The translations under genes were made by a program, and so were the position numbers. This document shows positions 20,823-48,141 of a stretch of 64,000 nt of DNA, in pieces; within the stretch, counting starts at the first letter, position 1; each line of letters opens with the position of its first letter. This stretch comes from Eremomyces bilateralis CBS 781.70 (taxonomy: Eukaryota), in NCBI GenBank assembly GCA_010015585.1, contig ML975155.1; one strand, 5' to 3'. The notes below the pieces were generated by a model. It had not been told where the DNA came from, made no database searches, and saw only the letters and a list, made by a program, of their open reading frames with translations.

Positions 20823-22208
20823 ATGGCACACGAAGTCCCGAGCTTCACCAGCTTCGAGTCCACGGACTCAAACATGGCTCAAGAGGCCATGTACATCAAC
20901 GGCATGGAGCAACGAGATGAGCTGCTGAACTCCGAGCTCCCATCTCCAGACCAAGAAGAGGATGATTGGGAGGAGCTCACCATTCCGGGGGTCCGCGATA
21001 CGGATTTAGATCTGAGCGATTTCGGCCTGGACTTTCCCGAACTGGGTCTCTTCAACGGGGACCTTGTCCGCCTGGGCGTGTCAGATGGGAGGAACGATTC
21101 ACCCCTGGATGGAGAGCCCCTGCCCCAGCTAAACGCGGAAAGGGCCAACGAACCGGGCCCGGGCCCCGCTCAGCCGATGGCTCAGGGGAGCAGTTCCGCA
21201 ACGTCACCATCGTCCTCGGAACAGAATTTCCTCGTGGCCTTCGGGCTTCCCACACCACGCACTCCAGTCGTGGGATCCCCGGTCAGGTCTGTTCCTCTCC
21301 TCCCCTCTCCTCCTGCTCCCCTCCGTCGCTCCAATCCCACTCCCCCCAACTCGAGTCCCTCCGCCCCCTCCACCTCTCAGGCGCCTACTCAATCTCAGGC
21401 CAAAAAGCGGAGGAGGGCAGGGGTCACCCCCCCGCGGAACCCGCCCATCTTCCGCCCGGTACAACCAGTGGCGTGGCCCGTGCAAATGATGCACGTGCCA
21501 CCGCACGCCCCAACACTGATGATGCCAGTGCAAGCTGCGACTTCGAGCCTGCCCCCCCAGTACCAGGCCGGGTCACCAATGCAGCTGGGCCAAGGGGGAT
21601 ATGCCGCGATTGGTCCATACGGCTCGGCGGCACACTACCAAATGCAGTCGTCGGGCTCGCATCGGCATCTGGGGTTGGGGTCCCTGGACCAGATGTACTG
21701 GGACCCAAACTTGATGGCGGACGTGTCCCAGCCACAGACACACACTAATCCGCCGCCGGGACGTCAAGATCCCTCCTGGGGAAATGGAACTCGCCGCAGT
21801 CGCCAGCGGGTTCATTCGGAAGCCCTGCCGGAACCAACCGCGGGATCTCCCGCCGCCCTCACGGTCCAAGTCACGACCGTCGAGCAAGGCCCGGGGAAAC
21901 CACTCGCTCCGAAGCCACTGCTGGGCTGTACCGCGACCAGTAGGGACCGCGGATGTGTGGTTAGCTGCCTGGTCAACGTCAATCCGGAAGGGTGGTGCAG
22001 GCGGGGACGACCGAGGAAGGCGGTGTCGGAGGAGGAGCAGAGGAGGAAGAACCAGATGCCCAAGCGGGGAAGGGGACGACCCCGGGGTTCGAAGAATAGG
22101 CTCAAGGTGAAGAAGTCGATGGAGAAGGGGAAGGAGGAGGAGCGCGTGAAGGACGCGGAGGAGGCGCGGGGCCCCCTGTGGAAGTGGATGGAAGACGAGC
22201 AGGACTGA
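20823..22208 (+). CDS. Intronless low-complexity protein with two AT-hook motifs (putative DNA-binding protein)
   Basis: 461-aa ORF. Acidic N-terminus, Pro/Ser-rich middle, basic KKRRR (NLS-like), and RRGRPRK and KRGRGRPRGSKN near the C-terminus. Preceded by a CT-rich leader. Confidence 0.72.
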   Translation: MAHEVPSFTSFESTDSNMAQEAMYINGMEQRDELLNSELPSPDQEEDDWEELTIPGVRDTDLDLSDFGLDFPELGLFNGDLVRLGVSDGRNDSPLDGEPLPQLNAERANEPGPGPAQPMAQGSSSATSPSSSEQNFLVAFGLPTPRTPVVGSPVRSVPLLPSPPAPLRRSNPTPPNSSPSAPSTSQAPTQSQAKKRRRAGVTPPRNPPIFRPVQPVAWPVQMMHVPPHAPTLMMPVQAATSSLPPQYQAGSPMQLGQGGYAAIGPYGSAAHYQMQSSGSHRHLGLGSLDQMYWDPNLMADVSQPQTHTNPPPGRQDPSWGNGTRRSRQRVHSEALPEPTAGSPAALTVQVTTVEQGPGKPLAPKPLLGCTATSRDRGCVVSCLVNVNPEGWCRRGRPRKAVSEEEQRRKNQMPKRGRGRPRGSKNRLKVKKSMEKGKEEERVKDAEEARGPLWKWMEDEQD

Positions 22209-26749: not shown

Positions 26750-28205
26750 TCACCCGAAATCCACATCCATCTCCCCTTCATATCCCCCCTCCATCTCATC
26801 CGGATACACCACCTCCACCCGACTCCCCAACGCCTCCTTCCCTTGCCTCAACATCTCATCCATCTGCCGTTGCATCCGCCGCATCCGCTGCTCCTGCCGC
26901 TGCTCCCCATACTCTCGCTCCCGCAGATACCGCCGCGCCTCCGGGGATATGTTCGTCGGGCTGCCCCCCTCGGACCCCGCGCCCCCACCCACCCGGTGCA
27001 CGTCGAGACGCAGCTCGTGCGCCCGCGTCACGTCCCCTGAGAATGACCGTGCGTGGCCGAACGTTGGCGGCGCGTATGATGCGCGGCCGGAGCGCGAGGT
27101 GGGCCGCGAGGTGCCCGATGCGCGGACGTGGGTGGCGGCGGGGGAGCGGAGTGCTGCGCTGGAGGGGCGGGGATGTGCGGGGCGGGTGGGGCTGGGTTGT
27201 GCGCTGCGGCGGGTGCGAGGGGAGGAGGGAGATGGAGTGCGGTGGGGTGCGATGGAGGCCGTGGAGGGGTGGCGGGCGTGGAGGGGCGTGGCGGAGGGTT
27301 TGCGGCGGGAGATGGGAGTGAGGGAGGGGCGGGAGCGGCGGGGAGGGGCGGTAGTGGAGGAGAAGGGGGAGGGCGAGGGGTGGTGGTGAGCGGGTGCTTT
27401 CTCGACGACGACCCAGCCGGTGTTGGTATCGGTGTGCAGGCGTTTCGCGGGACGGGAGGAGAGGTAGTCGTCATCTTCTGAGGGATATTGGCCAGGGACC
27501 GGGGTGGCATCGCGCTCGAATCGGCGGATCGCGCCCGAATCCTCCTCCCAGTGGGACTCGTCGCCGTTCATGTCTGGGTCCGCGTCGTTGCCTGGCGACA
27601 GGTGATATCCCTGTCCGCCGCCGGCGTGGAACCCTTTAAAGGCGGCGCTACTGCAGAATTGCCAGACCTTCCCGGCGACGCCGCCCACGATCCCGAACAT
27701 AAACTTGCCCCATCCTCGCCCTGGGGCTGCGGAACCGCTGGGTGAGGACGGCGGGCTCTGTGCAACGTCCCTTATCTCCTTCACGATGTCGCCATCCCAC
27801 TTGCTCCTAAAGTTGACATCCGCCTGCGCACTGAAGTATTCGTCGCGGTCAAGCTGCCGCGACTGCGCTAGCAGTGGTGTATCCAACCCTCCGGCCAGGA
27901 TATACTTGGTGTTTACCATCGGCGGAGGGCTTCCGGTTTTCGTGGACCGCGCGATCGAGGAGTCGGCCATCGGAAAGTCGTTCCATGGCATGGAGATCTC
28001 GGAGTGGGCGTATGGCGTTGTGAATGAGTTCGTAGAGCGGTTCGAGGAGGGCTCAGGCCGTGAGCGTTTTCGGGAGTAGGAGGTATTGGGGGTCTGGAGG
28101 ATGTGGGATGTCCGGCCATGGCTTCCGCGTACGTGGGCAGCGCCTTCTCCGCTCATTGGGGTGAAGTAGTCAGGCATTTCTGGCGTGGTATTGCGCGCCT
28201 TCATC
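26750..28205 (-). CDS. Conserved fungal hypothetical protein (largely disordered)
   Basis: Long single ORF (first ATG near 28205) with blocks SPPPMVNTKYILAGGLDTP and GWGKFMFGIVGGVAGKVWQFCSSAAFKGFHAGGGQGY, and C-terminal coiled coil MRRMQRQMDEMLRQGKEALGSRVEV. Start uncertain. Confidence 0.78.
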
Positions 28206-28541
28206 GTTTCGCTGTAAATGTTTCTGAGGGTATACGTCGACAAGGCAGTTGTTCGACGTTCTCCACGCCACGCAATATCGCAAAGGATGGCAAGAGGCTA
28301 TTCCGCGCCAGTATGAATCATAGCTGCCTGAAAAAGCATACGGGGTATATGACTATTCGCCTTGTCGAGGCGGGGTTGGTTGCATGTGGTGATACGTCGT
28401 ACTCGCTCTTCCGGAGCTGGAGGAGCATGAGCTGATCGGAGATCCATAAAATGCCTTAGTGCCTAAGGCCAATTCATGCTTTGGTCAGCTGAGTCAGCCA
28501 GGTCTCCAGCACGTGATTTTATGCCTCAGAGCCTAAGGCTG

Positions 28542-29960
28542 CACTGCAAGGCGCCACAGCGCTTACTCAACCTACATATCGTGCCATTCAACACGACTTC
28601 AGCCTCACCTGCGTAGTACACCTTTCTATCACGAATTATACAACAATGCCTATCATGGAGGAGCCCAAACGTTCTGAATACGATACTATACGAAAAACGC
28701 GATTCTTTGATGCCTACGATACACTTCCGAAAAGCTCTTCTTTTAATAGTCTTTGTAAAAGAGAGGGAATAGAGATACCTCCATCAACAGGTCGATCTTG
28801 GCTGGAGCAACGCGAGCAATGTGGTCTAGCCGCATATCGTAAGACTCGTAAGCTTAGCACACGTCTCGGACAGCCCTCTCGAATAAGCGATTCAGATATC
28901 CATCGCTTATTTGATCCATCAAATCCTCTCCATTACCAACCGTACGATGAACAGGGCCTCGAATTCAATGTTAAAGGGAAAACAGTACAACGAAACGTAA
29001 AGGAACGGGCAGGAGCCCAACGATTTCGAAAGCCCTACGTCACAGCTATCTCCCCGGCACATAAAAAAAGACGGGTCTCGTTTGGTCAACGAAATAAGGG
29101 CGAAACATTGACGAGATTTTGGCGATACGTCTACTTCACGGACGAAGCCCATTTCAATTCTCGAGATCTCTCAGATCGACCTGAATATGAGCTTCGAGAT
29201 CCTGGGGTAAGTCAACATCCTCAAAATCTCCAGGAAACCGGGTCACTCCCACTCAATGTCACTGTTCACGTCGCGAGTGGTGTTTCGTACGACCACAAAG
29301 GTCCACTCGTCTTCTACAACGATCCAGCTTGTCCGACCGTCCCGAAATCCTACAGACCACGCGCCCCTCGCCGATCTAGCATTGAATCAGAAGAGCAACA
29401 TGCTGAAAACGTCCGAATCTTTCGAGAAGCAGCTGATCGACCAGAGGTCGAATCAAAGCCTAAAGGAAACTCTATGGGCCAGAGATTCTATCTAGAAGAG
29501 GTTCTTCCGCATCATATTAAGCATCTTAAGTGGCTCGAGGGTAAATATAATCGGAAGTTCTTCTTTGTTGAGAAAAACGACCCATCTCATGGAACTCGTT
29601 CTATGAACAATCCCGTTATACAACGAAAGAGAGATGAAGATCTCCTATTACTTGATTACCCCGCTCAATCATCTGGTCTAAGTCCACAAGAGCCAGTTTG
29701 GAGAGCGATGAAACAGGTGCTTCGAGGTGGATCATGGCATTCGGTGGAGGGATTTAAGCAAGCTATTCGGGCTGCCCATCGCTCGGTATCACAGCAATCA
29801 ATTCGTGGATATATTAGTGAGATGCCTCAGCGTTGTGAAAAGCTCATCGAGCTAAAAGGAGGCCGAATTCGCTCTGATAAGTGGTAGAAAATGAATAAAT
29901 TGATGAATCTGAGCCTTTCCCAAGCCCTCTAGACGATGAGTAAGCGTCCTCTTGCTGCCC
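28542..29960 (+). mobile_element. Tc1/mariner-type DNA transposon with degenerate terminal inverted repeats
   Basis: Left GCAAG..CGCTTACTCA (about 28546-28569) and right TGAGTAAGCG..CTTGC (29937-29955) are inverted copies flanking the transposase ORF. The ends are imperfect and no TA target duplication is evident. Confidence 0.7.
28646..29887 (+). CDS. Tc1-like DDE transposase (second catalytic Asp apparently substituted)
   Basis: 413 aa with N-terminal HTH region. Motifs WRYVYFTDEAHF, FFFVEKNDPSHG (cf. EDND.SH), YPAQSSGLSPQEPVWRAMKQ (cf. PAQSPDLNPIE) and C-terminal ISEMPQRCEKLIELKGG. Confidence 0.9.
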   Translation: MPIMEEPKRSEYDTIRKTRFFDAYDTLPKSSSFNSLCKREGIEIPPSTGRSWLEQREQCGLAAYRKTRKLSTRLGQPSRISDSDIHRLFDPSNPLHYQPYDEQGLEFNVKGKTVQRNVKERAGAQRFRKPYVTAISPAHKKRRVSFGQRNKGETLTRFWRYVYFTDEAHFNSRDLSDRPEYELRDPGVSQHPQNLQETGSLPLNVTVHVASGVSYDHKGPLVFYNDPACPTVPKSYRPRAPRRSSIESEEQHAENVRIFREAADRPEVESKPKGNSMGQRFYLEEVLPHHIKHLKWLEGKYNRKFFFVEKNDPSHGTRSMNNPVIQRKRDEDLLLLDYPAQSSGLSPQEPVWRAMKQVLRGGSWHSVEGFKQAIRAAHRSVSQQSIRGYISEMPQRCEKLIELKGGRIRSDKW

Positions 29961-32900
29961 TTTAACATCAAAACATCACGACATCGATCCAAAGTTCCCA
30001 ACTTTATTTTCACCCTCATTTCCAACTAGCTCATTGACCGGTTTGAAATCGTCTTTTATTAAATATATGAGGTAGCAAAAATCAAGGGCTTTGGCTCTAT
30101 CTTGTGGAATATGACAGGTAGGGGACATAAGTCATAACCCCCCGTCCACTTGGAGGCTTCGGGAGCCTTTCCTCTTGATAATCAGTCTTTATCGTCGCAG
30201 ATAAATCGATGGCACCAGATCTTCGAACTGATGTAGGCGAACTGAACTTCCGCCATCTTCTCAGCATCACTAATAATGTTGTTCTCCTTCGCTCATTTGA
30301 TTTCTTCCTTTCCTCTCCCTCAAAGTCCCCTCCAACTATTCCTAGCCCTTCGTCTGCATTGCAGTCATGTCAGTGGAATCGTCACTAAAAGAAAACATCA
30401 AACTTCTTGGTGCTACATAAACTCAATCTCTGCACCCTCGGCCTAACATTCTGCAATATGTGCATTATAATATGCCGATTTCCACAGTCTTCCGCTCACG
30501 TGGTCAAGTTCTGTGATAAACAGAGAGGGTGCCTTTCATCAGTTCTCCTACTTTTCATTACTTCCATTCCTTCACTCAACCTTCTACTTCTTATTTATCT
30601 CCCTCCCATTCCCCCTTCTTACTTTATTTCCTTAATTATACTTCCTCCTTCCTTCCTTTACTATTACTTTTCACTTTCTTCCCTTCCCTTCACTCCCAAT
30701 TCTCACTTCCGGTGACAAGTAGCTCAGTCAAGCTCGCTTGATTGAGTGAAACTATAGACCAACAAGCACATTTGCGACATTTATCTCCGGGGACTCACAC
30801 TTTCTGGATCTCAGATCCTCGTGCTCTCGCATGGATCTAGACAACTTTAGCTGTGGCATGCGTCTTCGAGGCCTCAATATTCTTGAGACCCATCTCCTCC
30901 TGAAGACCTAGGAGACCAAAAAGCGCAAAGATATGTCGTGATGTTGTCCGCATGGCAAGAGCCATTTCGGCGAACGAGTTCTTCCCGCCGATCTCATGCT
31001 TTCCTCCTGGACCCCGCGTATCAGCACCAATCCCGATCCTCGCAGGGTTGTTCTCCTCTCCGACTACACAGCGAAATCAGCAGAACATCTGGAGTGGGGT
31101 CTGGTCGTGAGACGTCCCTGGTATTCGAGAATCCGCGTGTGGATGATGTTTAGAGATAGCGAGACGCCTTGTCTAAGGACATGGGTACTTCGAAATTCGG
31201 ATTGGAGATTAGAGTGCGGTGAGCTACTGGAGTATGCCCTGTTCCAGCGTCTGGTTTCAAAACACACCTCATATCGGACTGGTGGGATCCTACGGGACAG
31301 TATGCAACCCCTGCTTGTGATGGTCTGGCGCGAAGGGCGGGAACCAAGTGGGATGATTTGCGAGTCGAAGAGCTAGGAGTAGGAGTCTATATCTGTTGTT
31401 TGTGGATTGGTAGATTCTTCTGTGGGCCATGCTCATCAATCGCAGTCCATTCTCCCATATTGCCGCCTCGTTTTACTTCTCCTCACGCTCTGTCGTTGTA
31501 TATCCTCCTTCCGATTTCAATCATTTATAGTAGTAGCTGCCTTCTCTGATAGTCTTGAGCTGCGCTCAGTCTGAATGTTGGCAGGCTGGGTACAGAGACC
31601 ACCCGTAGTGGCAAGCTGCGAGAGGGAGAACTCTCCTCCCCTTTTTCTTCAGCGATTCAACCTTTTCCGCCTCCAAAATCCTTTGTGGTTTCAGGCCATG
31701 ACATCTTCATCATTGAATGCCGTCAATCATTTATAGTAGTAGCAGCCTTCGGCTTTACTGTCGTCGTAGGCTGGGGGCGCACTTCCGTATACGCGAAGCC
31801 TCTGAAATCAGTTTAAGTTCATCAAGAGAAGTTGTCGTTTTCCTTTCCAATTTTTCAACTTCAGTACAGTCAGTCCAGTTCATCGCGGGGAGTTACTTGT
31901 CGTTTCCTTTTCAATTCGCAAATCCAGTACCACCAGTCCAGTTCACTTCGTGAACAGAGAGCCGCGGTCGTATTTACTTCGTAAACGGTATAGTTGCGTC
32001 ATCCATTGCTCTCATGCTTTCACTGTTCCCGTTGGCCACTCTCTCGTATGTTCTCTCTCACAATTAGTTTGATTATATAGTCGATAGTTCGACAACACGG
32101 GTTTGCCCAACTTTCAATGGTCCAACCATGCCTTAAAGTCCACCATGAGCGCAAGGCATACTGGGCGCATTCCATCCAAGATACTGCTCTCCGATTTTGC
32201 GCACTATAGCAGCATTTGCTTATGATGAAATATTGCGACGGAAATCTCCCAGACAGAAGTCCAAACTTTGTCAGACCAACAGTTGACATGCGAGGGGAAC
32301 CGGGTCGCTTCTTAAGCTCACTTAATAAAGGATTTGCCCCAGAGTCCTGGGACGAAAACACCCGCAACGAATTCTGGCAAGCCTATCGTGCATGCTGCCA
32401 TCACACGGTACGCTTGGCTAGAATTATCAGTGACGATTAGCTAGCAATCCGAGCCTCTTTATATTAGGAAAACATATAAAAGTATCAGAGTATACCGAAT
32501 TCGACTCATAGTTGGAAGTGTCTCTGTTAATTTAATGTATCTATTAATAGATCCATCAGAATGGACAATATAGCAAATTATTTTTATAGTACCGCATGGT
32601 AAGTTTCACCGCCACCTTTCTTTCTCCATCAAGTACACAGTTCTCCGCCACTTCTCATGTGAACTTTGGACGTACACTGGCTCTTGAACAGCACTCCCAC
32701 ATCGCATAGAGTTCTTTCGAAGGGGTTCAAAGACCTCTTCAAAGTGGTCCTGGAAGTTCCGCTCGAACACGATCACGGCCTTGTCCTTGATGACCTTCGG
32801 GTTTGGTATATTAGTCACCTTGGGTTCAGTATATCCAAGGCACCTCTTTCCAGCGCCGGGAGAACCTCTGGACACGAAGCTCTTTCAGAGCAGAGTCATA

Positions 32901-35220
32901 TCTTCGTGGGCAAGAGACGGGTCAAGAGCAGGGTGCAAGACCTTGCCCAACGGCGTCTAAAGGAATATTGCCATTGTTACTCCGTACAAGGCACAGAAAC
33001 AGACCTAGGCGATGAAATTGGGGGAGGTAGCCAGTGAACCTGTCAAGGCTCACTGCCTGGTGTGCTCAGACCGAACGAGATTATCAACTTCCTGTTAGAA
33101 ATCTGGATCTCCAGTCCGTCTCAGTCTCATGAGAAGGATAGTGGCCTTCGACGCCGTCATCAGTAATGTCAATAAGCCTGCTGCTCTTCGACGAGGTCAT
33201 TAGCAATGCTAATGAGTCTGGTGACTTCGGATTTCTGGTTGATAATATGAAGCTTCTGAACACCAGTTTCACTCGTGGAAGAGAAGTATTCTGTATGGTT
33301 GGCTCCGCTTTCCCATTCCATTGAACGAACTCAACTCTCCTTGCTATATGATGCAGTACAGACATGAATTGGTCGTCAAAGATCGGGTCACTAAAATCGA
33401 TGTCAGGCTATGAGCAGAACGAGACGAAATAAAGCGATGGGGGTCCGGAATACGAGGCGTCGGTCGGGTTTGGGCCTGAGAGTGACGACGACGGGGATGG
33501 GCGGTAGATAGGGTGCTGGGGGTTAACAGACCACAATTGTCAGCCATCAACAGAAAGGGCAGAGGATGTCTAAAGAATTGGACTCCCGTGGAACAGAACG
33601 AAGATGTCAGAAAACCGAAAATGGCGGGAAAAATATGGTCATGTACATTAGATCGATCACACGTAGGCAACGGGCAGACACTCAAAACTTAGAAGGACAA
33701 CCATGCTGTGCATGGTGGAGGAGGATCGGAATCTGAGCAACGGTTGAGGGAACCGAGATGTATACACTAGCTTAATCAATTTTACCCATCTAATAGCTCA
33801 CAGAATAAATGGTGGAACAGTGCATACTTACCGATCCAGAGGCGTTCAGCAGAACGAAATTGATAGCCCAGTGACCTCGAGACACGTCCCCGGCCCACGT
33901 AAGGCTGAAACTTCACAGATAACGGTTATGGGCTTTAACCCTGGGGTTGTGCTTCATGGTCATCCATTTCTTCTACCTTGATGGGCCATCAGAGTGGATG
34001 AAATCGATGGGCCTGCACACTTGACGGACTCCCCTAGGCTAAAGTTAGAATCGATTCAAGGATCTTAGAAGTCCGCTTGGGGATGTGTTTCGGGGTCCAG
34101 GTCTCCAGATAATCGATTTCGTCATCCCGGATAGAATCGCGACCGCCAATTGGCAACGCGAAAGGACGAAAGGAAGAGTAGGAAACCGGAACACTAGGGG
34201 GCGCGAAAAGGCTAACGTGACGCTTAGAAAACAATGCCGCACCCCAGATAAAGGAAATGCTTGATATCTTGAACTCCGCATTGCGGAGTGGCAACCCCCA
34301 AAGTCTCTGGTGGTAGTGTACCACGGGTGGATGAACGGAGATCCCATCTTCACATACGCGCTGTATGAAGCACGTGGCCAGTCAAAGTCGGGTACCCCTG
34401 AAACAATCAAATACCTTCTGTAGAAATCATCTGCCGAATTTCCTATCTTGAAGAGACGTTGTTTGGACACACGAAGTCTCGGTCCCGTGGCGTGGGAGCG
34501 CTCAAGGCGAGCCTGCTATGCACGTGGACTGCGGAGTATTACAGATATCCTCATTGAGTCATTTAGAGCACATTGGGAAACCGAAATACTCTCCGGACGA
34601 TTTTCGTATCGCTGGACAACGGCATACTATCTCCAGGTCTCGAGGCCATGCCACGAATGACGAAATGCGTGGAGTTCAGCTGCCGACGGGATCAACAAAT
34701 GCACTTTTGACACCATGGTCTGTACGTACGAAGCATGACAAACAACAGACGGCATATGAATCTATCATCATTCAGCTCGAAGTGGGGGATTCCATCCATA
34801 TCAAAGCCAAGATGATAGTTCTCGAAAATCTTAATGTTGACGTTCAGGAGGCTGACCGGGGATGTTGATGCATGTCTCGAAGCGGCCTAGTGTACGAATA
34901 GTTTCAGCGATCGCCACCAGGGACCCTCCCAATTTGCCCTCCTCGAGATCCCTGGTTCTCAACCCAGGAATGATCTTCGGGGATATCTTGGGGATCAGCG
35001 CGATTGAGGATGGAGATCGCGAACCCTTCCATCGGGACTTTGGTACTTCGTGGGATCGTTCGCCGATATCCAGGCGAGCCTTATCAGGAACAACTGAACA
35101 ATGGAATGTTCTGTGGAACAGAGAGATTTAGATCAGTACCATGCGAAGAGATAGGATAGAAAGGTAGGATTGTCCAATTGATACTGAAGACTTGGGGCGT
35201 GTATTCTTGATGATTTTGTC

Positions 35221-35228
35221 TATAAAAG
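35221..35228 (+). promoter_or_regulatory. TATA box of the repeat-peptide precursor gene
   Basis: TATAAAAG 155 nt upstream of ATG 35376, followed by a CT-rich leader and a CACCATG start context. Confidence 0.65.
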
Positions 35229-35375
35229 CCGTGTCAACGCGTCGTATTCAGTCTCCTTGTCTCTTTATCCGCATCGTTCAAGTTCAATCCTTCGCAAAGA
35301 GTCCTTCATTCCGGCTTCTCCAAGTCCTTCATCCTTCCTAGCCCTTCGTTATCGAAGACTACCCCTACCTTCACC

Positions 35376-36200
35376 ATGCGTACTCAACTCCTCGTCGCCG
35401 GCATTGCTCTGGCTGCCTCTGCGATGCCTCTTGAGGCTGCCACGCGGGTCGAGCGTCGCTCTCCATCCCCAGCTACCCCCGCCACACCCCTAGGTAGCCT
35501 CATCGACAAGCTCCTCAGCGCAGTTCCGCCTGTCGAGTTCGACCTTGGAGTCGGAGGCAAGCCTGAGAACGGGTCGACTGTTGAGCGTCGCTCACCAACC
35601 CCGGTCGAGCCAACTACCCAGCTGGGCAAACTCATCGATGGCCTCCTCAGTGCGGCCCCACCTATTGAGCTCGATCTTGAAATCGGCGGAAAGCCCGAGA
35701 ACAAGACTGCTACACGTCGCTCTCCATCTCCTGCTACCCCAAGCACTGCGCTCGGGACCCTCGTGGAGGACCTTTTGAGTAAAATCCCTCCTGCCGAGCT
35801 GGATCTCGGACTTGGCAGGCGTGCGCTCATCAGCCGTGCGGATATCGCTTCTGCCCTCCCAGATATCATTGGCACTGTTACCGACATTGTCACTGTCATC
35901 CTTGGCCACATCCCAGCCACCGATCTCAACCTGGGAGTCGGCAGGCGCGACGTCGCCAGCGCAGCGGCCATTACCACTATCCTCCCTGACCTCCTGAACA
36001 CGGTCACCGATGTTATCGGCGTCATCCTTAGCCACGCTCCTCCGGTTGAGCTCAACCTTGGTGTCGGCAAGCGTCAGGTCCCCAGTTCGGCAGACCTGAG
36101 TGCAACCGCCTCAGATCTTCTCGGCAGTGTTACAGATATCGTTGGTGTCGTTCTCAGCCACGTACCGCCGGCAGAGCTTGAACTTGAAGTCGGCAAATAG
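35376..36200 (+). CDS. Secreted Kex2-processed repeat protein (KEP); precursor of six related amphipathic peptides
   Basis: Signal peptide MRTQLLVAGIALAASA, then six repeats with a core like L..(L/V)..(L/I)LS..PP.EL.L.(V/I/L)G, separated by RR/KR sites. No Cys, intronless, coding-like codon usage. Confidence 0.9.
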   Translation: MRTQLLVAGIALAASAMPLEAATRVERRSPSPATPATPLGSLIDKLLSAVPPVEFDLGVGGKPENGSTVERRSPTPVEPTTQLGKLIDGLLSAAPPIELDLEIGGKPENKTATRRSPSPATPSTALGTLVEDLLSKIPPAELDLGLGRRALISRADIASALPDIIGTVTDIVTVILGHIPATDLNLGVGRRDVASAAAITTILPDLLNTVTDVIGVILSHAPPVELNLGVGKRQVPSSADLSATASDLLGSVTDIVGVVLSHVPPAELELEVGK

Positions 36201-36718
36201 GTGCCGAAGAGAAGGCACCGTGAGGCGCTCATGGAAGAATTAGAGAGCATCGGGCAACATCCTTACATGACGGCAAATACGGCGTTCTCATTCGCGATGA
36301 AGGACTAGAGAAATATGCTAGGCAATAAGACTTGTAATTAGGAAAATACTCCATGGACTCTTTCTTGTATATTTTTTTTATGAATGCCTGTTTTTCTGGG
36401 ATGCAATTGTGTGGATTCTGCAGCAATAGAGAACTGGATTCAACTTGATTTGATTCTCAAAATTACCGAAGGCTTTGAAATTTGAATGAATTGACATCAT
36501 GACGCTTCAAATGGGCTTATTGATAAGGCCCTGATCGACGTTGAACGTGGGGTTATCTTAGTACCTCGGGGGTGTCACGTCGACTGAGCGGCATTCAAGT
36601 TGCGTCGCATTCAATTTTCCGAGTTCAATTCACAACCATTGCTATCTTGTAGTTATATACCTCTAATTCTTTCACTTTTGAGAGTTCTAGCATTGCCACT
36701 ATACCGATAAAACGGAAT

Positions 36719-37447
36719 ATGGCAAATCTATTCGAAGAAGGGACCCAATCCCTTCTCCACGCCAGCGAGCATGTTTCGAGACGCACAGTTGGATACTTCA
36801 AGCGATTCTTGGATTGGGCGCTACAAGATAACGTTCTCGAAGTCGCAGTTGGGCTGATGTATGTGACGATTTTAGCTGTTCAGTCATTTCTTCCAGTCCC
36901 CTCTTCTACATGCCACGTCTCCTTCTCTCGTGTTACATCCGGTGTTTAACCTGCTACGCAGCATCGCTGCAGCCTTCACGGCGGTTGTGTCATCCCTCAC
37001 TACCGACATTATACTTCCTATTGTGTCACTTCTCCCCTTCTTCAATCGCAATCTAGATGAGAAATTTGCCATTCTTCGTGGTGGCCCGCATAGCGAACAG
37101 GGCTACAACACGATCAAACAAGCCCTCGACGATGGTGCCGTTGTATTCGCCTATGGATCCTTCCTCGATAAAGTGGTCCGTTTCATGGTGCTTGGATTGA
37201 CAATGTATGTCACCGCTCTTGTATACGGCTGGATGAGCAAAGATAACATCGTCCGACACTCGGTGCGATGCAAATATTGTCGGAAGAGGATCAGCGAGAA
37301 GGTGAGTGGAATCGATTCGAAGCGGTCGATCCGGAGATCACGACGCTGTGGGCAATCGTTTCTAACTTACCACGTTTTCATAAATGCCAGGCTACGCGAT
37401 GTTTCAACTGCACCAGCTGGCAGGATGGCAGGGAAGAAATCAACTAA
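36719..37447 (+). CDS. MscL-family (large-conductance mechanosensitive channel-like) protein with a C-terminal CxxC..CxxC motif
   Basis: FLDWALQDNVLEVAVGLIIAAAFTAVVSSLTTDIILPIV (MscL TM1 signature, cf. F...GNV.DLAVG.IIG.AF..IV.SLV.DII.P) and FAYGSFLDKVVRF (TM2). Introns 36859-36961 and 37302-37390. Spliced end CKYCRKRISEKATRCFNCTSWQDGREEIN*. Confidence 0.9.
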
Positions 37448-39070
37448 TTAACACGTCATGACGGGAACCGGGCAATATACCTTCCACGAATGTTCGATTT
37501 GTAGGGGTCTTTTCGCAATGAAGACATCCCAAACCGTTCGTCGTCGCACCGTGTCGGCGAGATTGCACTTTACAATTCACTTGGAAAGCTTATTATCGAT
37601 CGTCGTTGGGTTCGAAGACGAACAGCAATTTCATCTGAATTGCAGTCGCACGGAGGCCCTCACCGACATAATCTTAAACAATTTATATTGTGGCGCTTGG
37701 GTCCAGGTTCTGCTGCCGGCCCCTGCATCCTTCAAACGATTGCATACGAACAAGAAATCCTTGGATGCCATGTGACGATAATGGTCGGTCATGCGAATCG
37801 GGGGCAATTAATATATTCGATGGCGCTTGCTCGGGTCTAAGCACGAATAATGTCCAATTTGACTTGACCGTCCCCTCGGCCCCCGTAGTGCGGCACTGAA
37901 TGGGAGACGGACTGGGCGGAGCGCGGACAAGTTTTCCGAGAACCCGGAATTCAAAGTTGGGAAGCCATGATGAGGACTATTTATTTGAGTCGTCCTTAAC
38001 AGCAATAAGAGGAAGGTTTATACAGAAGTTGAAGCATCTTGCGTTTCACAGTCCTAAAGTTTGAAAGGCGGGGGTGGCAGAGAGTTGGACGGCGACACGA
38101 TGCCGACGCTAGTGGTCGGCAGATAGTGGAGCGCCTGGCCGCGGTCCGCCACTCCCCTTCGATATCATCCCCATAATCTCACCTCACCTATTCTCCACCC
38201 AAATAACCAGTGTGATATTCTTCCTCAGGCTTTAGTCAGTTTTTTATGCTTCCGAGAGAGCCCTTTTGATCAGCTGTATCGCATATTGGCCATATTTCGA
38301 AGGGAGAGGGCCTATTATCGCTCGGCAATCTTGACAACCCTCATCTATCGGCGTTCACCAATTTTGGCTGGTCCTCATGGCAAGCAATCATTCCCTTGAT
38401 GACTTTATCTCTCAGGAGTTATTACCCAACTCGGTAGATTAACGAAGAGGGCAGCAGTCCTGGCCGCCACCCTACCAATGAACATGCGAAGAATCAACCT
38501 GTATCCGTCTTAATATACCAATAAGGTTTGGCTGCAACTTACCCCCAGCATCGCTAGCTAGAAAGGGTTGTCATAACTTCCACGAATCCTCGTCGCTGTC
38601 CCATGCCCTCAGTCCCGGTTCGATATGCGTCTTGTTTATACCCATATACGAGTCTTTCATACGCTCCACGCGCTTCCCCGCAATGAAACAACCTGGATTC
38701 TACCCCTGATGCGCTCTGTCTCGTTCCTGTTCATGTGGGCTCACTGACCCCTTCTGGCTGCACGGGTCAACCGCTGTCGTTTAACTCTCGCGCATCCCTC
38801 TTCTTGCTGCTCCTTCTTCCCAAAATATCCTACATTCGGCCTCGCGAAACGACGCAGTCAGCGTGTTGGCCAGCTCATAACCTGTTGAAGACCGGCCTCA
38901 TCCTCGAACGTCCTTTTTCGAGTCCTCTGGATGTCGTGACCACTCTGTTATTCCTGTCCAATCCTGACATCACGACCGCGCCTTTGCCTCGGCCTGTGGG
39001 GGAACGATGAAAATGTCCACCTCTACCACCCAACACCGACAATAGTACGAATCGGCGACGGATCGCCATC

Positions 39071-40552
39071 ATGCGAAAAGTACCGGCCGCGGTGATGGAC
39101 CGTTGGCCTGCGCCCAACTTCGTTAATCCGGAGTCGCAGGCCAACAAGATGCTGATTTCCATCTATATCTGCATAATAATCATCATCTTCGTGCTCTTGC
39201 TTCGGCTGTACTCTAGAATATACGTCGCAAAGTGGGTCTCCGCTTGGTGTGATGGAGCGAATCGACTGGGCTAACTGGCATTTGCATCAGATTCTTTGGA
39301 ATGGACGACTGGATGATTGTGCCCGCTGCTGTAAGCCTTCTTCAAATCCACATGAACCTAGATCACACAGAACTAACTGTAGTATAGATCACGGCCATCG
39401 GGTACGGGATCAACGCAATTGTCGCCATCGACCACGGCTGGTGTAAGAAGTTTTTAGTCTTTAGCTTAGAGCACGACTGACAAACTCCAGACAAACACAT
39501 ATGGGACCTCCGACCACATGAACTAATGATGGCTCGAAAACTCGTCATCGCATCCAACCTGACCGGATTGTACACAGCCGGTTGTACAAAACTTTCTGTC
39601 CTTCTCCTATACCACCGAATCGCGCCGGCATATTCTCGATTTCAATATCTAGTCTGGTTCTTTACTGGACTCGCCATCCTTTGGATCATCAGCTTTACCG
39701 CCGCGAACTTCCTGCTGTGTATCCCGCTTCATGCGTATTGGGATCTCAATTACGATGGTCCGCAGTCGTGCTTTGTGGAGGTGCCCTACTTTGTCGCCTT
39801 CGCAGGAATCGATCTCTTCCTAGATACCGCCATATTCATCCTGCCTCTACCGCTGGTCATCCCACTTCGTTTACCGAAGCGTCAGAAGATGATCCTTGGA
39901 GCTGTGTTTGGGATTGGGATTTTGTGAGTACAGCAAAATCCATCGATCACTACCAAAACTGACGTGCTTCAGCGCGGTCGTTGCAGCAGCCCTTCGGTTA
40001 CCAAGCCTTGTTCGGGTAACGGAATCATTTGATCTAACCTGTAAGCACCCCATCGCCTCCCTTCGTCCCTTAAAACACTTCAAACCCTTCGAGTATTAAC
40101 CAGCCTCAGGGGAAATCTACGATGCTGCCCTCTGGACCCTTGTCGAAGCCACCGTGGGCATCTTCTGCGCCTCCGTCCCCGCCCTGAAGCCCCTCGTCCA
40201 GAAATACACCCCCGCCATCCTCGGCACCATGGGCAACGGGAATCTCACGGGGAGCGGCCACATCAATAGCGGGATGTACCCGAACAGCCAACCGGCGTTC
40301 AGCCGCGCCGACTCGCGGGCATACAGCGAGCAGGCGTGGAGCCGCACGCGGTCGCGAACCCTCAGCGAGCCGACCTACAGTCGCGAGCTGTCGCGGACAC
40401 AGAGCGGCAACGTTGTTTTCAGCGACATCGAGCGGGGGAAGGGGTCTGGGGAGTTGGAGAGCGTGATCCTGACGCGGATCGAGCTGGCGGGGCGGGTGCG
40501 GGAAAGCACCGACAGTTCGCAGCGATTGGTGTCGCCGCGGCGTATGGTTTGA
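39071..40552 (+). CDS. PTH11-like (rhodopsin-domain, SAT4 family) integral membrane protein without a CFEM domain
   Basis: WPAPNFVNPE, LLRLYSRIYV, FGMDDWMI, GCTKLSVLLLYHRI, CIPLHAYWD, DTAIFILPLPLVIPLRLPKRQK, LWTLVEATVGIFCASVPALKPL. About five short GT..AG introns; exact boundaries approximate. Confidence 0.9.
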
Positions 40553-41049
40553 TGGGATTCAATGGGAATGATTATGGCTTATGGTTCGATGGATTGGGAT
40601 GGATCGTTGTTGAGCATTCGGCGTTTTGCATATGATATGATTCCTGGGGTATGTGGATCTCTTGGTTGATGGCATATAGGTATTTATGCCGACTTGATTT
40701 ACCTCATATTATGGCCAATGTGTATTTAGGTAGAACTATCAATTGTATGATGAAGAATATTACCATATTAACAGTGAAACCAGTCGCCCCTTTCTTGATG
40801 CATCCTCATGAACGTGAATAAATATAGCGACGGACCCATTGACCTGCGTTAGAGACATTCTGCTGCTCATCCCGCCGCTCATCCTGTCGGTCACCGCAGT
40901 GCTCGTTGCGTAGATCATCGTGCTTGATAATTCGAGTTGGTGCTTTCTGCCTAGTGATTCACGATCTTTCGAATACATTCTGTGTTTCTTCTGCTTCTAT
41001 TTTCTGCACGCATCACAATATCATGTTGGGTCTCGGGATCCCGGAGTCT

Positions 41050-41700
41050 ATCCATGATTAGATTGGCTTATACCCGCCACCCCCGGCGCAGAATCGCCTA
41101 CATAGCTTCCCATACCAGAGTCTGCACAATGTTTAAGTCCATAGGTCGATTTCACTGCCCGAAGCACTTTGTTCGGGGCCTCAGAGTATCTTTTCGGTGC
41201 TTCAAAGTAGGTCTCTTCGTCGATGTCTTCATGTAGGCAGGCGGTTTTGATGTCCTCCTGTCGACACTTGTAGCCAAGGAGTGCCACAAGTGCGAGAGAG
41301 GCCAGATATAACGGTGACTTGACCACCGATGCGAATGCTTCCTGGAAGTCCACTCCATAGGCATTTTCAAACCCATGTACAACTCAACTAGCTTTGTATC
41401 TGGTGGTCCCTCAATCTTCGTGCCATGGCATGCGTCGACGGACTTGACGGGCTCTTATATATAGCGCTTCCAACCATGCGCGAAGCCCGTCCGACTGCTG
41501 AACCACCCGAGTTCACATCCTCGTCCACCGTCTCCAAGGCCCTCTGACTGCCTCAAGGGGGACAGCTTCTCCCAGCGCCAGCCTCAGGATTCGGAGTATC
41601 TCGGGTAGCACCTGGTTCCCTAGTCGAGTATTTGAGCCCTGGTATATATAGGACCTGCATCATGCCGTAGAAGAAGATGGCCTAGAAGTGGCCCCGAACC
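41050..41700 (-). mobile_element. Ty1/copia retrotransposon reverse-transcriptase remnant (degenerate)
   Basis: DFQEAFASVVKSPLYLASLALVALLGYKCRQEDIKTACLHEDIDEETYFEAP...KVLRAVKSTYGLK matches the copia RT motifs ETFAPV / QMDVKTAFLHG.IDEEIY / L.KSLYGLKQ. Truncated and frameshifted; boundaries approximate. Confidence 0.85.
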
Positions 41701-44531
41701 TGGTCCCTCTCACTGCGGGACCCCAACCGGACCATGTAGGAGGCATAGGTCGAGGTCCTTGTGGTAGTTCAGCAGGGCTTCTTTCGTTTCTCGTTCCGCA
41801 TTCAATTTCTCCACACCGCCCTGGAGCTTCCTCATCCGCTCGTCCTGCTCCTCATTACCGGCGCGGAGTTCACGAGGAAACTGGCGGAAGGCTCGGAGTC
41901 GTAAGAAGGTTATCTGTTCGTAAATCGAGAGTATGAATTCCTCGATGTTGACCCCATTCCAGCTTGTGTCGCGTCTCGGTTAGGGATGAACCTCCTGGGT
42001 CGACAGGTCGAAGCGGGGAGAAGCGGTCGGGGCTTTGGACGACCTCGCAAGTCTAAAGGCCTGGAGCCGGTTGGAAACTTTCATGCTCCTCCAAGAGATT
42101 CACCGACGCCGCTTTTTCTGCGTCGAGGTTTGTTATATAAGCGATTTGAATGGTTCTATATCGACTATTTCGTTGCTACCTGAACTGCCGAAACTTTATG
42201 AGCTGCTGAAGGTCTAGGGCACTTACTTCGTGGACATATGTTGATTTCTCTGCATGGGATCGGGAAATGGTATATAACCTGTGCATTGCCGCTCGAGCGG
42301 TAGCCTTTGTAGTAGCCAGTGACGAGGGCGGGAACGAGGGCGAGGATGAGGACGAGGACCAGGACGAGGACAATGGGTGCCATTCCTTGGTCGCTCTGCA
42401 TGCGCTGAGTATATACATCATCCATGCAGCCATGTTGGCTTTCGTTCTAAACGGGGCCACCAGCGAAGAGGATGGTTCTGAATTGAGCTCGCATCGGGCT
42501 TGGTTGGACCATGGGTTCCGATCCTCGTCAGTTCATCCCAGTGGGTCGCGAAGTTGGTCGATGCCGGCAACGGCTTGGCCCTGCATGAGCCATGTGGTGA
42601 CAAGGTGGGCGAACATGTACGTGGACCGTGGTCGTTGCAGGGCTTCTGCGGAGTCTATGAGTCGGCTGAGTTTGTGGTATATAGATATGACTTCGGCATT
42701 ACGACGTTGGATCGATACCAGCTCCGCGAGCTGGCGGACTCACTCAAGAACATGAACGAGATCGAGATGGGCTTCGATCCTTGTTTCGCCAATCTACAAC
42801 CAACGTTGGGTGTGCCATATCAAGGCTTCGTGGGCAACTGGATTGCGTCGGTTCGATCGGCCAGCGGCAAGGCGATCGAAGAATCTTGTCACAAAATATA
42901 TACTGATCGAACAAGTCCAGGACTATATTGATGGTGTAGAAATTCATATATAAGATCGGTTCGATAAGATATTTCTGAGGGCTGGCAAAGGAGATTTAGG
43001 GTTAGAATGAAGAGCAGGCTGAAGAAGATTGAAAGAATTTCTCATAAATTTGATGGGCTGAATAAGTCATATAAACGACATATTGTTTGACCGGATCCAA
43101 ACGGTTGAATGAATTGGTTTATAATTCCGGAGGGTGCGAGAAGGATAGGGAAGGATAGAGAAGTAGGAGGACGATCTCTCTCTTTGAAAATCAGGACGGA
43201 AACCTAACAAACGAGGAACACGAATCACAGTGGACAATACAGATACCCTCGCAGAGAAAACGCTGGACGCAAACGAGGGCGGATGAAAGGATACAACTGT
43301 ACGGAGTATTAGGAGGTGTATGTAGCCGTCAGAAGATATGAAACTCGCCTAGTTCCTTCGTTGTAGTGATGGGAGGTCTCCCAAACAATAACAAAGACGG
43401 GACGAAATAGGTGATAGATAGCTATCGCCGTAGGGAGGTATCCTTGACACACAGGTCTCCAGCCTACCAAAAAAGAAAGAAAAAAGCGAGGAAAGAAGCA
43501 CAGGGCATGGAAATTCTTTCAACATAGGCACGGCAAAGAAGTCCAGAGCAGATACCGCTAAGGTACAATAGCAATCGTGAGTTTTCAAAGCCCTGGACCC
43601 CATGGTCCCGGTCCACCCGGGTATCAAATGCATCCAGCATCAATGATCCATCATGGTTGGGGACATCTAGTAAACGGGATAGTATTCTAGGCTTGTACTC
43701 AAAGTTTTTTGGCGCTCTAAAGGTGACTAAACGCCGGAGTTTGATGGGCAGGGGAAGCGAGTCCACCCATCTTAACAGAAGCTTTGCATCGAGTTGATGA
43801 TACAAAACCAGAAGTCAATTTGACATCTTTAGGCAGATCAGAGGAAGCCATCAATTCGTTCCAATGACTGTTCATAAGGCAGATGGATGCCATGCCCATG
43901 CTCTTGCTGCTGACTGCTTGTCTGGCACATCGAAAAACGGTCTTGTTCATGGTACTTTATGCAGTGTAGCTTGCATCGTGAGCCAATAAATGGCTGACAA
44001 AGGATTTCCTCAGCGGATAAATGCTATTATCTAATCCACTTGCAGATCAGATGATACCTGTCGTCCAGCTGAGTGCTAGGAATTGCTTTACAGTGGGGGT
44101 GGAGCTTGTTGATTTATGATTGTTGAGTGACAGGCTGACAGCGGAGCAAAAAAATGCAAAGGGGTGAGATGATCGGAACTGCCCCGCGGATGTGTTGATC
44201 GCCCAAACATTTCATCATCGCTTTCTCCGGAGGTTCACTTCATCATTTCTGGTTCCCATAAGTCAACGACTCTTGACGGAATTATCTGAAGAGATCAATT
44301 GCAAAAACATCAGGTTGTAAGTTCCAACATTCAATTGTCTTTCTTACACTAGTTAGCCTTCAACACTTTCTGTTTGTCGTGTTGATAGTGCCCCGCCTAC
44401 ACCGCCTACCATTGTGCTGACTCTCTGAATTTCTCCGCTCGAATCCATTCATAAAGGATCAGTTCTGATACATTGTCTAATACATTCTAGAGTCAATACT
44501 TCTCCCATTGAGTCATCCATCAGCCGCAATC

Positions 44532-46379
<1,848 letters not shown>

Positions 46380-46977
46380 AGGCTGGAAGGCGAGAGCCCG
46401 CATCGATGGAGGGACTGGAGAAGGGAGGGCGATTCGGTGAATGGGATGGGAAGAAACAAATAGTGCATAAAATGACTTTATGAGTTAGTAGTAACAAGGG
46501 GCAACTCTCGATAATAGATCCGTATCAGCCTCCTAAAGTCGTAGATTGACCGCACTGTAGGTTACGGGATTCCGCCAAACGATGCTCCTCAAATGGCTGC
46601 CATCTAAAATTCTTCCTGGCCTCTTTGCCACATCACTACTCTTGCTCTTGCTCTTGCTCATAATTACATCTGAAGCCATTCATAAATGCTATGGAGTACG
46701 GTACCTATTGGTGAGCTTTGGAGGGAAATACCTAATGGTAACGTCAGGACGTGAGGTAATTAGTCGTTGGAATAGAGCTCTAACCGAATCGGGTTAGAAC
46801 GAGTATGGATAAGGTACTTCGACAACAGGGAAACGGATCTGATATCGTCAACAACCCACCCTTTAACCACAAAATCCAAAATGGTTGGAAGATAATAGCT
46901 CTGCGCGAGCACTGCGCTCGTGTGACTTTTGATAGACATTGTAATTAATACTTGCCAGCTCCCACCGGTCCTCCCAT

Positions 46978-48141
46978 ATGGACTCCCGACGTGTCTCGCC
47001 ATGGACGAGTGCCATACTAATCCTGCTGGTTTGGTCGACTGTTTGCTCCGCCGTCGCAAGCGGAGATGGGCCTGTGAAATCAGTCGCGAAGGGATGGTCA
47101 TATAATGATGCTATACCGCTGAGTTGCTTGAACCGGAAAATGTGAGTAACGAGTGAGAGCGCGTGGAACCTATGAATACCAAACCAACGAAGCTAACCTC
47201 TGCTATAGAGAGAGTGGGGAACATGTATGCTGCACGAGACAGATATTGCGACGATATAGGAGCAATTGCTTATGAATGAGCGCTAGATCACGGACGAGAA
47301 TGGCCAACTGCAATATATCCCCTTCCATATCTGCAAGGAGACCGGTCGACCCCTCGAACTCCTCTATGGAGTTGATACCAGTATGTCTCCAGCCCCTCCC
47401 CTACACATCCTACTTTGCTTCAGTGACCGCTGACCCCTCCTCCCAGCAATCAACTGTACCCTCGACTTCATCTCCGACTCCCTCTTCCACCTCCTCGAAT
47501 TCTACGTCCACAACGACGCTCCTCTAACCTGCCGTCTCCCCACCCGGCCGCTTCCCTCCCTCTCTCCACCCTCCTCCACCGACAAAGGCGTCCCCGACTC
47601 CGGCCCCCACGACCTGCCCCCACCCCCCGACTCTGCCTCCCGCCCCAACACTGGCATCGGCGCCGACGACCCTCTCTACACACCCCTCCTCGTTGCCCTC
47701 ACCGGCACCCTCCAACTCTCCCACCTGCATGTCTCCAACCACCTCAACCTCATCGTGCACACCGCCCACGGTGCCCTCTCCCCCTCCACCTCTCCCCCTC
47801 CCAACACCAACACCCCGCAACGACGAAAGGGTGCGAAAGACGGCCTCATCACCGCCGCGACCGCGTACTCCAGCCCCCCATTCCCGCACACCGATTCCAG
47901 CAACGCGAAGCTCGTGATCGGCGACGAGCTCACGCTGCGGTTTACGGTACGGTGGTATGGCGGAGCGCTGCCGGTGGACGGGGCGTCCGGGACGAGGGTT
48001 TCATGGGCGGGCTGTTTGTATTATTTGGCGGTAGGGGCCGGGTTTGGGGGAGGGGTGGTGTTTGCGTGGTTGAGGAGGGGGAAGAGGGCGGGACCGATTT
48101 TGGCGATGTATGGGGGTGGGGGGAGTGGGAAGCGGGATTAG
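46978..48141 (+). CDS. Uncharacterised fungal type I membrane protein (signal peptide plus C-terminal TM helix)
   Basis: Not shown whole in the ORF track. Spliced product MDSRRVSPWTSAILILLVWSTVCSAVA...DAIPLSCLNRKI / ESGEH / ITDENGQLQYIPFHICKETGRPLELLYGVDT / TINCTLDFISDSLFHLLEFYVHNDAPLTCRLP...TM...GKRD*. Introns about 47142-47208, 47225-47286 and 47381-47446 keep the frame. Confidence 0.8.

Follow-up and report, generated by a model that had tools for sequence, protein, structure and literature searches.

In a 64-kb stretch of DNA (the window), the gene at positions 35376..36200 of the plus strand encodes a protein of 274 amino acid residues, in which a predicted signal peptide and a short pro-piece are followed by six repeat units bounded by dibasic sites of the Kex2 type. 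The sequence is an orphan and the architecture is a known one: this precursor is another Kex2-processed repeat protein (KEP), not a new kind of system. Probably, it represents a lineage-restricted KEP of a filamentous ascomycete, whose six acidic amphipathic peptides would have a bulk role at an interface. The interpretation in a preliminary description of the locus is partly supported: the reading of the architecture agrees with the analysis, whereas a membrane-active or surface-assembling role would be a candidate function.

Organization of the precursor

The precursor gene is an intact open reading frame (ORF) from ATG to TAA, and the following features were assigned to it and to its immediate surroundings.

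35376..36200, plus strand: whole coding sequence, 274 amino acids and stop codon, without intron, start context CACC-ATG
35376..35423, plus strand: predicted signal peptide, residues 1-16, with basic R2, hydrophobic core 3-16 and A-S-A at positions -3 to -1 of the putative cut site
35424..35459, plus strand: pro-piece, residues 17-28 (12 amino acids), C-terminal V-E-R-R
35460..35591, plus strand: unit 1, type A, residues 29-72, SPSP start, helix 38-48, PP hinge 51, alternating strand, NGS spacer, end V-E-R-R
35592..35720, plus strand: unit 2, type A, residues 73-115, SPTP start, helix 82-92, PP hinge 95, strand, NKT spacer, end A-T-R-R
35721..35822, plus strand: unit 3, type A without spacer, residues 116-149, SPSP start, helix 122-135, PP hinge 138, end L-G-R-R
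35823..35948, plus strand: unit 4, type B, residues 150-191, helix 155-177, P-A hinge 180, end V-G-R-R
35949..36074, plus strand: unit 5, type B, residues 192-233, helix 193-219, PP hinge 222, end V-G-K-R
36075..36197, plus strand: unit 6, type B, residues 234-274, Q start, helix 238-262, PP hinge 264, end V-G-K, then stop
35221..35228, plus strand: TATA-like element TATAAAAG with a putative function, 148 nt 5' of the ATG
35000..36379, strand not given: one RNA contig of run X3, 1380 nt, colinear, without joint, gap or mismatch

The elements named in the preliminary description, namely the ORF, the signal peptide, a pro-piece ending in ERR and six repeats bounded by RR or KR, are all present in the intact frame, the signal peptide as a prediction (Kyte-Doolittle mean of 1.69 for its core, residues 3-16), and the units span residues 29-274 of 274, about 90% of the chain. 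Also, the three repeats described as type A do start with SPSP or SPTP, and the two sequons lie in the spacers of units 1 and 2 (NGS at N65 and NKT at N109, respectively); repeats 3-5 end in G-RR or G-KR as stated, and the last one begins with Q. Cys-free peptides in two sub-families had been claimed, and types A and B are indeed distinct, the 274 residues containing zero Cys, Trp and Tyr and a single Phe. The proline hinge is PP in five of the six units and P-A in unit 4. That type B repeats are longer and more hydrophobic was only half right: without the dibasic pair, type B units count 40-41 residues versus 32-42 for type A and are therefore not longer as a whole, but their predicted helix is (23-27 versus 11-14 residues), and their hydrophobic fraction is higher (0.44-0.53 versus 0.32-0.38).

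Pairs of the form [KR]R were found at residues 27-28, 71-72, 114-115, 148-149, 190-191 and 232-233, all six at unit boundaries and none inside a unit. When the mature sequence was shuffled, a mean of 1.02 such pairs was obtained, and none of 20,000 shuffles reached six. The six sites are not independent events, since the units arose by duplication; the telling point is that the sites survive in both diverged sub-families. The residue at P4 is aliphatic in every case (V, V, A, L, V and V), which agrees with the P4 preference of Kex2. Three of the six sites, at the three type A starts, are followed by X-P-X-P, so that the X-P dipeptides, previously read as trimming signals of the Ste13 type, do stand directly behind putative cut sites. 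KR and RR are Kex2 sites and XA or XP is the Ste13 signature in the survey by Le Marquer et al., 2019 (PMC6339444; this and the other papers on known systems are cited here from excerpts of their text).

The same boundaries bear on whether the product might remain mostly in one piece, as a repeat glycoprotein that is secreted or attached to the wall, with glycans on its Ser/Thr/Pro stretches and sequons, its units serving as modules within a single chain and its dibasic pairs being unused or partly used. S/T/P-rich linkers and two sequons would suit such a protein, as would the modeled disordered chain with a helix in each unit (see below), and the repellent precursor Rep1 of Ustilago maydis itself leaves one larger product of 229 residues (PMC3133707). 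We nevertheless regard an uncut glycoprotein as unlikely: dibasic pairs with an aliphatic P4 would not be expected at 6 of 6 boundaries and nowhere else, the type B boundaries have no linker and consist of G-RR or G-KR only, and the precursor sequence has no C-terminal hydrophobic tail fit for a glycosylphosphatidylinositol anchor.

C-terminal amidation at the G-RR and G-KR ends was considered and set aside, because the Gly belongs to a shared terminal motif and is likewise found at the end of unit 6 and ahead of the spacers in the first two units. Fungi are not known to possess an amidating enzyme.

Transcription and coding strand

The precursor locus is transcribed and intron-free. The X3 contig covers the whole gene, and the objection that the gene might not be expressed, by which the preliminary description was to be judged, does not hold. 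Run X3 was classed as RNA in the region 30000-47000, because it contained all 13 listed intron-like joints in neighboring genes while DNA run X1 contained none of the 13; nine are GT..AG joints in the genes for a rhodopsin-domain protein and PGI, and four are their reverse-strand equivalents. X3 contigs show neither strand nor transcript ends, and their depth was not used for expression ranking. Runs X4 and X5 placed no sequence on this stretch.

An antisense ORF of 213 amino acids (35384..36025) overlaps the precursor gene and stops at 36025. In gapless, hinge-anchored comparisons of the units, the ratio of the proportions of non-synonymous and synonymous differences (pN/pS) was 0.35-0.58 when read in the precursor frame; four of the five other frames gave 0.69 or more. 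However, pN/pS alone cannot fix the strand, as the mirrored antisense frame scores about alike, and the plus strand was assigned from the signal peptide, the context of the start codon, the TATA element and the span of all six units, which no ORF but that of the plus strand achieves.

The precursor gene may be missing from one public annotation: a collection of 15 billion proteins lacks the exact precursor, yet contains the neighboring PGI of the same species, and the exact precursor sequence is present in the ESM Atlas. If the locus were transcribed but non-coding or antisense, and its ORF due to chance, then this absence, the antisense ORF and the similar pN/pS in its frame would fit. Such a locus would not account for the textbook signal peptide, the CACC-ATG context and the TATA element upstream, nor for one plus-strand frame running through six conserved units, and six boundary dibasic pairs together with a periodicity in each unit are unexpected of noise; we consider a chance ORF extremely improbable.

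Divergence and predicted structure of the repeat units

Tandem Repeats Finder reports no DNA-level repeat in the gene, and the repeat is thus visible only at the protein level. Pairs of units within a type share 44-68% of their residues and 59-67% of their nucleotides. The proportion of differing silent sites (pS) in such pairs is 0.52-0.69, which is near saturation, and the ratio of non-synonymous to synonymous substitution rates (dN/dS) is 0.16-0.45. Gapless, hinge-anchored comparisons gave 19-26 differences at codon position 3, 7-19 at position 1 and 4-10 at position 2. The six units are maintained under protein-level constraint, and one copy of a hinge-plus-strand motif occurs in each of them.

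The AlphaFold2 model of the precursor has a mean predicted local distance difference test score (pLDDT) of 39, a predicted template modeling score of 0.23 and one helix per unit, and the model in the ESM Atlas a pLDDT of 0.38; both models suggest a precursor without overall fold. In the helix segments of all six units the strongest hydrophobic periodicity lies at 90-105 degrees, and the fraction of shuffles that reach the observed moment is 0.0014-0.031. Similarly, the eight residues after the hinge alternate in six of six units (shuffle fraction 0.017-0.082). The helix-like segment, the Pro hinge (PP in five of six) and the alternating strand of the preliminary description were thus recovered, with periodicities exceeding those of shuffled sequences. 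Val, Ile and Thr together make up a fraction of 0.28-0.48 of the type B helices. All six predicted peptides are acidic, with net charges of -3 to -5, and for unit 5, submitted as four copies, a self-association score of 0.02 was predicted. What the copies preserve is periodicity, hydrophobicity, hinge and strand, not exact sequence.

This mode of conservation bears on the possibility that the precursor is a KEP whose peptides are hormone- or pheromone-like signals. The X-P-X-P signature behind the cut site of three type A units speaks for signals, and KEPs with a Ste13 signature have been proposed as peptide-hormone candidates (PMC6339444). On the other hand, signal-type KEPs are described in the same source with identical or near-identical motifs, in contrast to copies that are 44-68% identical within a type, and the commonest peptide class in Dikarya has 9-24 residues, compared with 32-42 here. 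With periodicity and hydrophobicity conserved instead of exact sequence, we judge a signaling precursor to be quite unlikely.

The type B helices could also be thought to span a bilayer, in which case the product would be a membrane protein. In units 4-6, the best 19-residue windows reach Kyte-Doolittle means of 1.35-1.61, and in the ESM Atlas, the low-confidence model of residues 150-274 has transporter helix bundles as its nearest neighbors, with template modeling (TM) scores of 0.28-0.48 that all lie under the bar of the tool. Each of these windows carries 1-2 acidic residues, the basic pairs in every loop clash with an alternating topology, and the repeat and boundary logic would be left unexplained, which together make a membrane protein barely credible.

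Homology searches

Searches with the single sequence detected no relative. Pfam returned only two sub-threshold rows (expectation values, E, of 0.098 and 2.1), no PDB sequence matched at E<=10, and phmmer found none among 1.84 billion protein representatives at E<=0.001. A word-indexed search of 5.8 billion clusters, restricted to proteins of 150-480 amino acids, found nothing at E<=0.001, nor did the search with residues 29-274 against proteins of the same size at E<=10. Among metagenome contigs, 597 pattern matches were obtained and none was confirmed. All ESM Atlas neighbors remained under the bars of the tool (best feature score 0.79; whole-protein TM<=0.26). Within the window, tblastn with the precursor found no paralogue, the matches being the gene itself, its own antisense and weak Ser/Pro-rich matches of E>=0.026. 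Neither the unit motifs nor the species name were found in the supplementary tables of the surveys PMC6339444 and PMC7329392; as regards the motifs this blank says little, because the tables are without a KEP list or apparently hold accessions. Relatives detectable only by a profile of the single unit may exist, no such profile having been made.

A match to an already characterized family, which would have contradicted the preliminary description, was thus not obtained with Pfam, phmmer or PDB sequences. The view that the peptides form an unrecognized family is borne out for the sequence, which is unmatched; the architecture is that of the published KEP class, and in this respect the novelty was overrated.

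An exon of the neighboring PGI gene is identical in 178 of 179 residues to a protein that NCBI names as belonging to Eremomyces bilateralis CBS 781.70, while the other fungal matches, among the 120 matches listed, come from several classes and show at most 89% identity. Judged by this neighbor, the window would derive from, or from very near, E. bilateralis, whose lineage is an incertae sedis order of the Dothideomycetes. Since PGI identity falls from 99% to <=89%, the lineage is poorly sampled, which partly explains the absence of relatives; fast-evolving secreted peptides would not be traceable over such distances.

Gene neighborhood

In total, 256 stop-to-stop ORFs across the window were scanned against Pfam, a procedure that short exons could escape. 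The scan took in 19 ORFs, 102 out of 126 ORFs with 70 or more amino acids at 25.6-46 kb and, with a lower limit of 90 amino acids, 86 of 92 ORFs in the left flank and 49 of 92 in the right flank; the set at 25.6-46 kb left out five ORFs overlapping the precursor and 19 in the PGI region. None of the 256 matched DUF3328 or another peptide-tailoring family. The neighbors are housekeeping genes and encode a protein disulfide isomerase, NDUFA5, a Na/Ca exchanger, an MscL-like protein, a fungal rhodopsin-domain protein and PGI and, further, mitochondrial S21, a PWI protein, two aminotransferases and THO2.

The precursor shares its general architecture with precursors of the ustiloxin type (PMC7329392), and it might belong to a ribosomally made, post-translationally modified peptide (RiPP) with cores that are altered by tailoring enzymes whose genes lie elsewhere in the genome, the gene survey having covered the 64-kb window. 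The preliminary description had argued from the lack of a DUF3328-like gene nearby that the product is not a dikaritin RiPP, and the scan agrees. Tyr, Trp and Cys are the residues cross-linked in known dikaritins. A dikaritin is unlikely because the window scan contains no DUF3328 gene and the precursor no Tyr, Trp or Cys; with housekeeping neighbors and units of 32-42 residues that differ from one another, we rate any RiPP as very unlikely.

Several observations concern the neighboring loci as such. Directly downstream of the precursor lies the MscL-like gene (36719-37448, plus strand; PF01741, E 1.7e-10), whose likely N-terminal ATG ORF (36719..36949) and MscL-domain ORF (36876..37448) are in different frames, which indicates an intron or a frameshift within the gene; among the X3 pieces shown, the contig 36680..37605 over this gene is colinear. 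On the minus strand, the region 32500-35000 contains X3 joints of the reverse-strand type at 33766/33832 and 34679/34730, no ORF with a Pfam match and none longer than 156 amino acids, and it may give rise to a transcript that is non-coding or orphan and runs divergently from the precursor gene. A short RVT_2 fragment (41051-41383, minus strand, E 7.3e-11), inside the span 40892..42454 of an X3 RNA contig, is probably the relic of a Copia-type retroelement. Long ORFs without Pfam match are found at 20667-22205 (plus strand, 513 amino acids), 26753-28297 (minus strand, 515 amino acids) and 28517-29884 (plus strand, 456 amino acids), and the two class I/II aminotransferase genes (53730-54665 and 57850-59352, both plus strand) have about 3 kb between them. 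Breaks in the contigs of DNA run X1 occur at 30665, 39144 and 42798, with loose ends there, which we take to resemble a linker of the loxP type and which would be an artefact of library construction, not a feature of the genome.

Discussion

In the pathway that we propose for the lineage-restricted KEP, the signal peptide would carry the precursor into the endoplasmic reticulum, and all six [KR]R pairs would be cut on their C-terminal side by Kex2 in the Golgi. A carboxypeptidase of the Kex1 type would then trim the basic residues, also the lone K at the end of unit 6, and units 3-6 would therefore end in the shared motif L-x-L-x-[VL]-G. Such an order, Kex2 and then Kex1, is described for the maturation of Ece1p of Candida albicans (PMC5784256). 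A dipeptidyl aminopeptidase of the Ste13 type would take two X-P dipeptides off each type A peptide. Three peptides of each type, A and B, would be expected as products, about 28-42 residues in length, Cys-free and acidic; in each of them an amphipathic helix would be combined with a proline hinge and with a strand that alternates between hydrophobic and acidic residues. They would most likely be linear and unmodified, because no tailoring genes are nearby and Tyr, Trp and Cys are absent from the precursor; possible modifications are glycans on type A tails or spacers and pyroglutamate on unit 6.

As the copies keep a pattern and not an exact sequence, we favor a bulk biophysical role at an interface over that of a receptor ligand. 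Provided that the precursor is cleaved, self-assembly on the hyphal wall or at air/water or hydrophobic surfaces, as for the Ustilago repellents, is a serious candidate to which we would give somewhat less than an even chance. Membrane insertion of the released peptides is conceivable but rather doubtful; by analogy, an attack on membranes like that of candidalysin would fit the long type B helices, not the charge. Signaling by the cleaved peptides and some other role are each unlikely, to an equal degree.

Several points weigh against the KEP reading and the role proposed with it. Kex2 cleavage and peptide release are read from the sequence alone; no orthologue was available for a cross-species check of the sites, and the six sites within one gene share their descent. 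The antisense frame with common third codon positions reaches a pN/pS of 0.37-0.66, near the in-frame value. The membrane filter of a KEP pipeline might reject the protein, since its type B segments are borderline hydrophobic (1.35-1.61). With net charges from -3 to -5, self-assembly as well as attachment to anionic membranes would be hindered, except where pH or cations neutralize the peptides. Finally, the Ste13 signature of the type A units, absent in Rep1, is taken as a pointer to hormone-like peptides in the excerpts of PMC6339444.

With little confidence, we propose a more specific version in which the two peptide types, released at a fixed 3:3 ratio, co-assemble via their shared hinge-plus-strand tail. 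The long type B helices with their narrow polar stripe would provide a hydrophobic layer or a pore wall, and the short-helix type A peptides, with likely glycosylated tails, a hydrated face. If true, the two components would make up an acidic surfactant or pore system that is devoid of Cys and has pH or cations as its switch; in Pezizomycotina it would be the functional, ribosomally made equivalent of hydrophobins and repellents, without a sequence relative.

Among the KEPs reviewed, the characterized ones with long Cys-free amphipathic products are from a smut fungus and a yeast. A KEP from a filamentous ascomycete with six diverged peptides in two designs offers a compact test case for two questions: do long-peptide KEPs in general act as materials of surfaces or membranes, and which of their features (helix length, proline hinge, alternating strand or acidity) count? 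There is also a gain for annotation, namely a transcribed secreted-protein gene absent from one very large protein collection.

Comparison with known systems

Two surveys give working definitions of a KEP. According to Le Marquer et al., 2019, it is secreted and non-membrane (TMHMM), with at least four fragments at KR or RR and a shared motif of at least 15% of the length (PMC6339444); the precursor described here has seven fragments and the hinge-plus-strand motif in six units. According to Umemura, 2020, it has a signal peptide and at least three tandem repeats of 8-100 residues between KR, KK, RK or RR (PMC7329392), and here six units of 34-44 residues lie between RR or KR, the identity-score test of that paper not being reproduced. 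By its sequence the protein appears to fit both definitions, with a predicted signal peptide and with its membrane status judged by a hydropathy proxy. Its orphan status and its two repeat types appear ordinary for the class in the excerpted surveys, in which 2560 of 7878 KEPs are without homologue and KEPs with more than one type of repeat are called frequent (PMC7329392), two motif types occur in 77 of 1193 KEPs (PMC6339444), and KEP types are mostly restricted to one genus, with a DUF3328 neighbor in only 22% of KEPs (PMC6339444, PMC7329392). Less common is the class of 25-50-residue peptides to which the units belong.

Among secreted proteins with other designs, hydrophobins have an eight-Cys pattern, as opposed to the zero Cys found here, and no Pfam hydrophobin match was obtained. 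Precursors of dikaritin (ustiloxin-type) RiPPs resemble the precursor in their signal peptide and Kex2-bounded repeats, but their cores are short and repeated, whereas the units here are long and non-identical, contain no Tyr, Trp or Cys and have no DUF3328 gene in the window scan. Ascomycete pheromone precursors of the alpha-factor type also have a signal peptide and dibasic sites followed by X-A or X-P (Ste13), with linear unmodified products (PMC6339444). Their cores are short, near-identical and rich in Trp, Cys, Pro and Gly, in contrast to diverged units of 32-42 residues without Trp or Cys.

Ece1p is alike in being a pre-pro-protein of almost the same length (271 versus 274 residues) that is converted, as proposed here, to several peptides by Kex2 and Kex1, and it yields a membrane-damaging peptide of 31 residues (PMC5784256). 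It was not found as a homologue in the Pfam, word-indexed or phmmer searches, in libraries for which the presence of Ece1p was not confirmed. In Ece1p a single peptide is the toxin, while the six units described here share one design. Furthermore, the C-terminus of candidalysin is cationic, unlike the six acidic peptides (-3 to -5).

Neither Pfam nor phmmer (1.84 billion representatives, the presence of Rep1 in the library not being confirmed) indicated homology to Rep1. Rep1, a basidiomycete protein with 12 repeats, lacks in the excerpts of PMC6339444 the Ste13 signature that is present in the type A units here. It shares with our precursor the plan of secreted repeats with Kex2 sites between Cys-free amphipathic peptides, several near-equivalent copies per gene, and the peptides are of similar size, 34-53 residues in Rep1 (PMC3133707) versus 32-42 here. 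For Rep1, it has been shown that the peptides form amphipathic amyloid on aerial hyphae (PMC3133707), while the precursor from the window is known from its sequence. By analogy, the Ustilago repellents would be the closest functional model for its six peptides.

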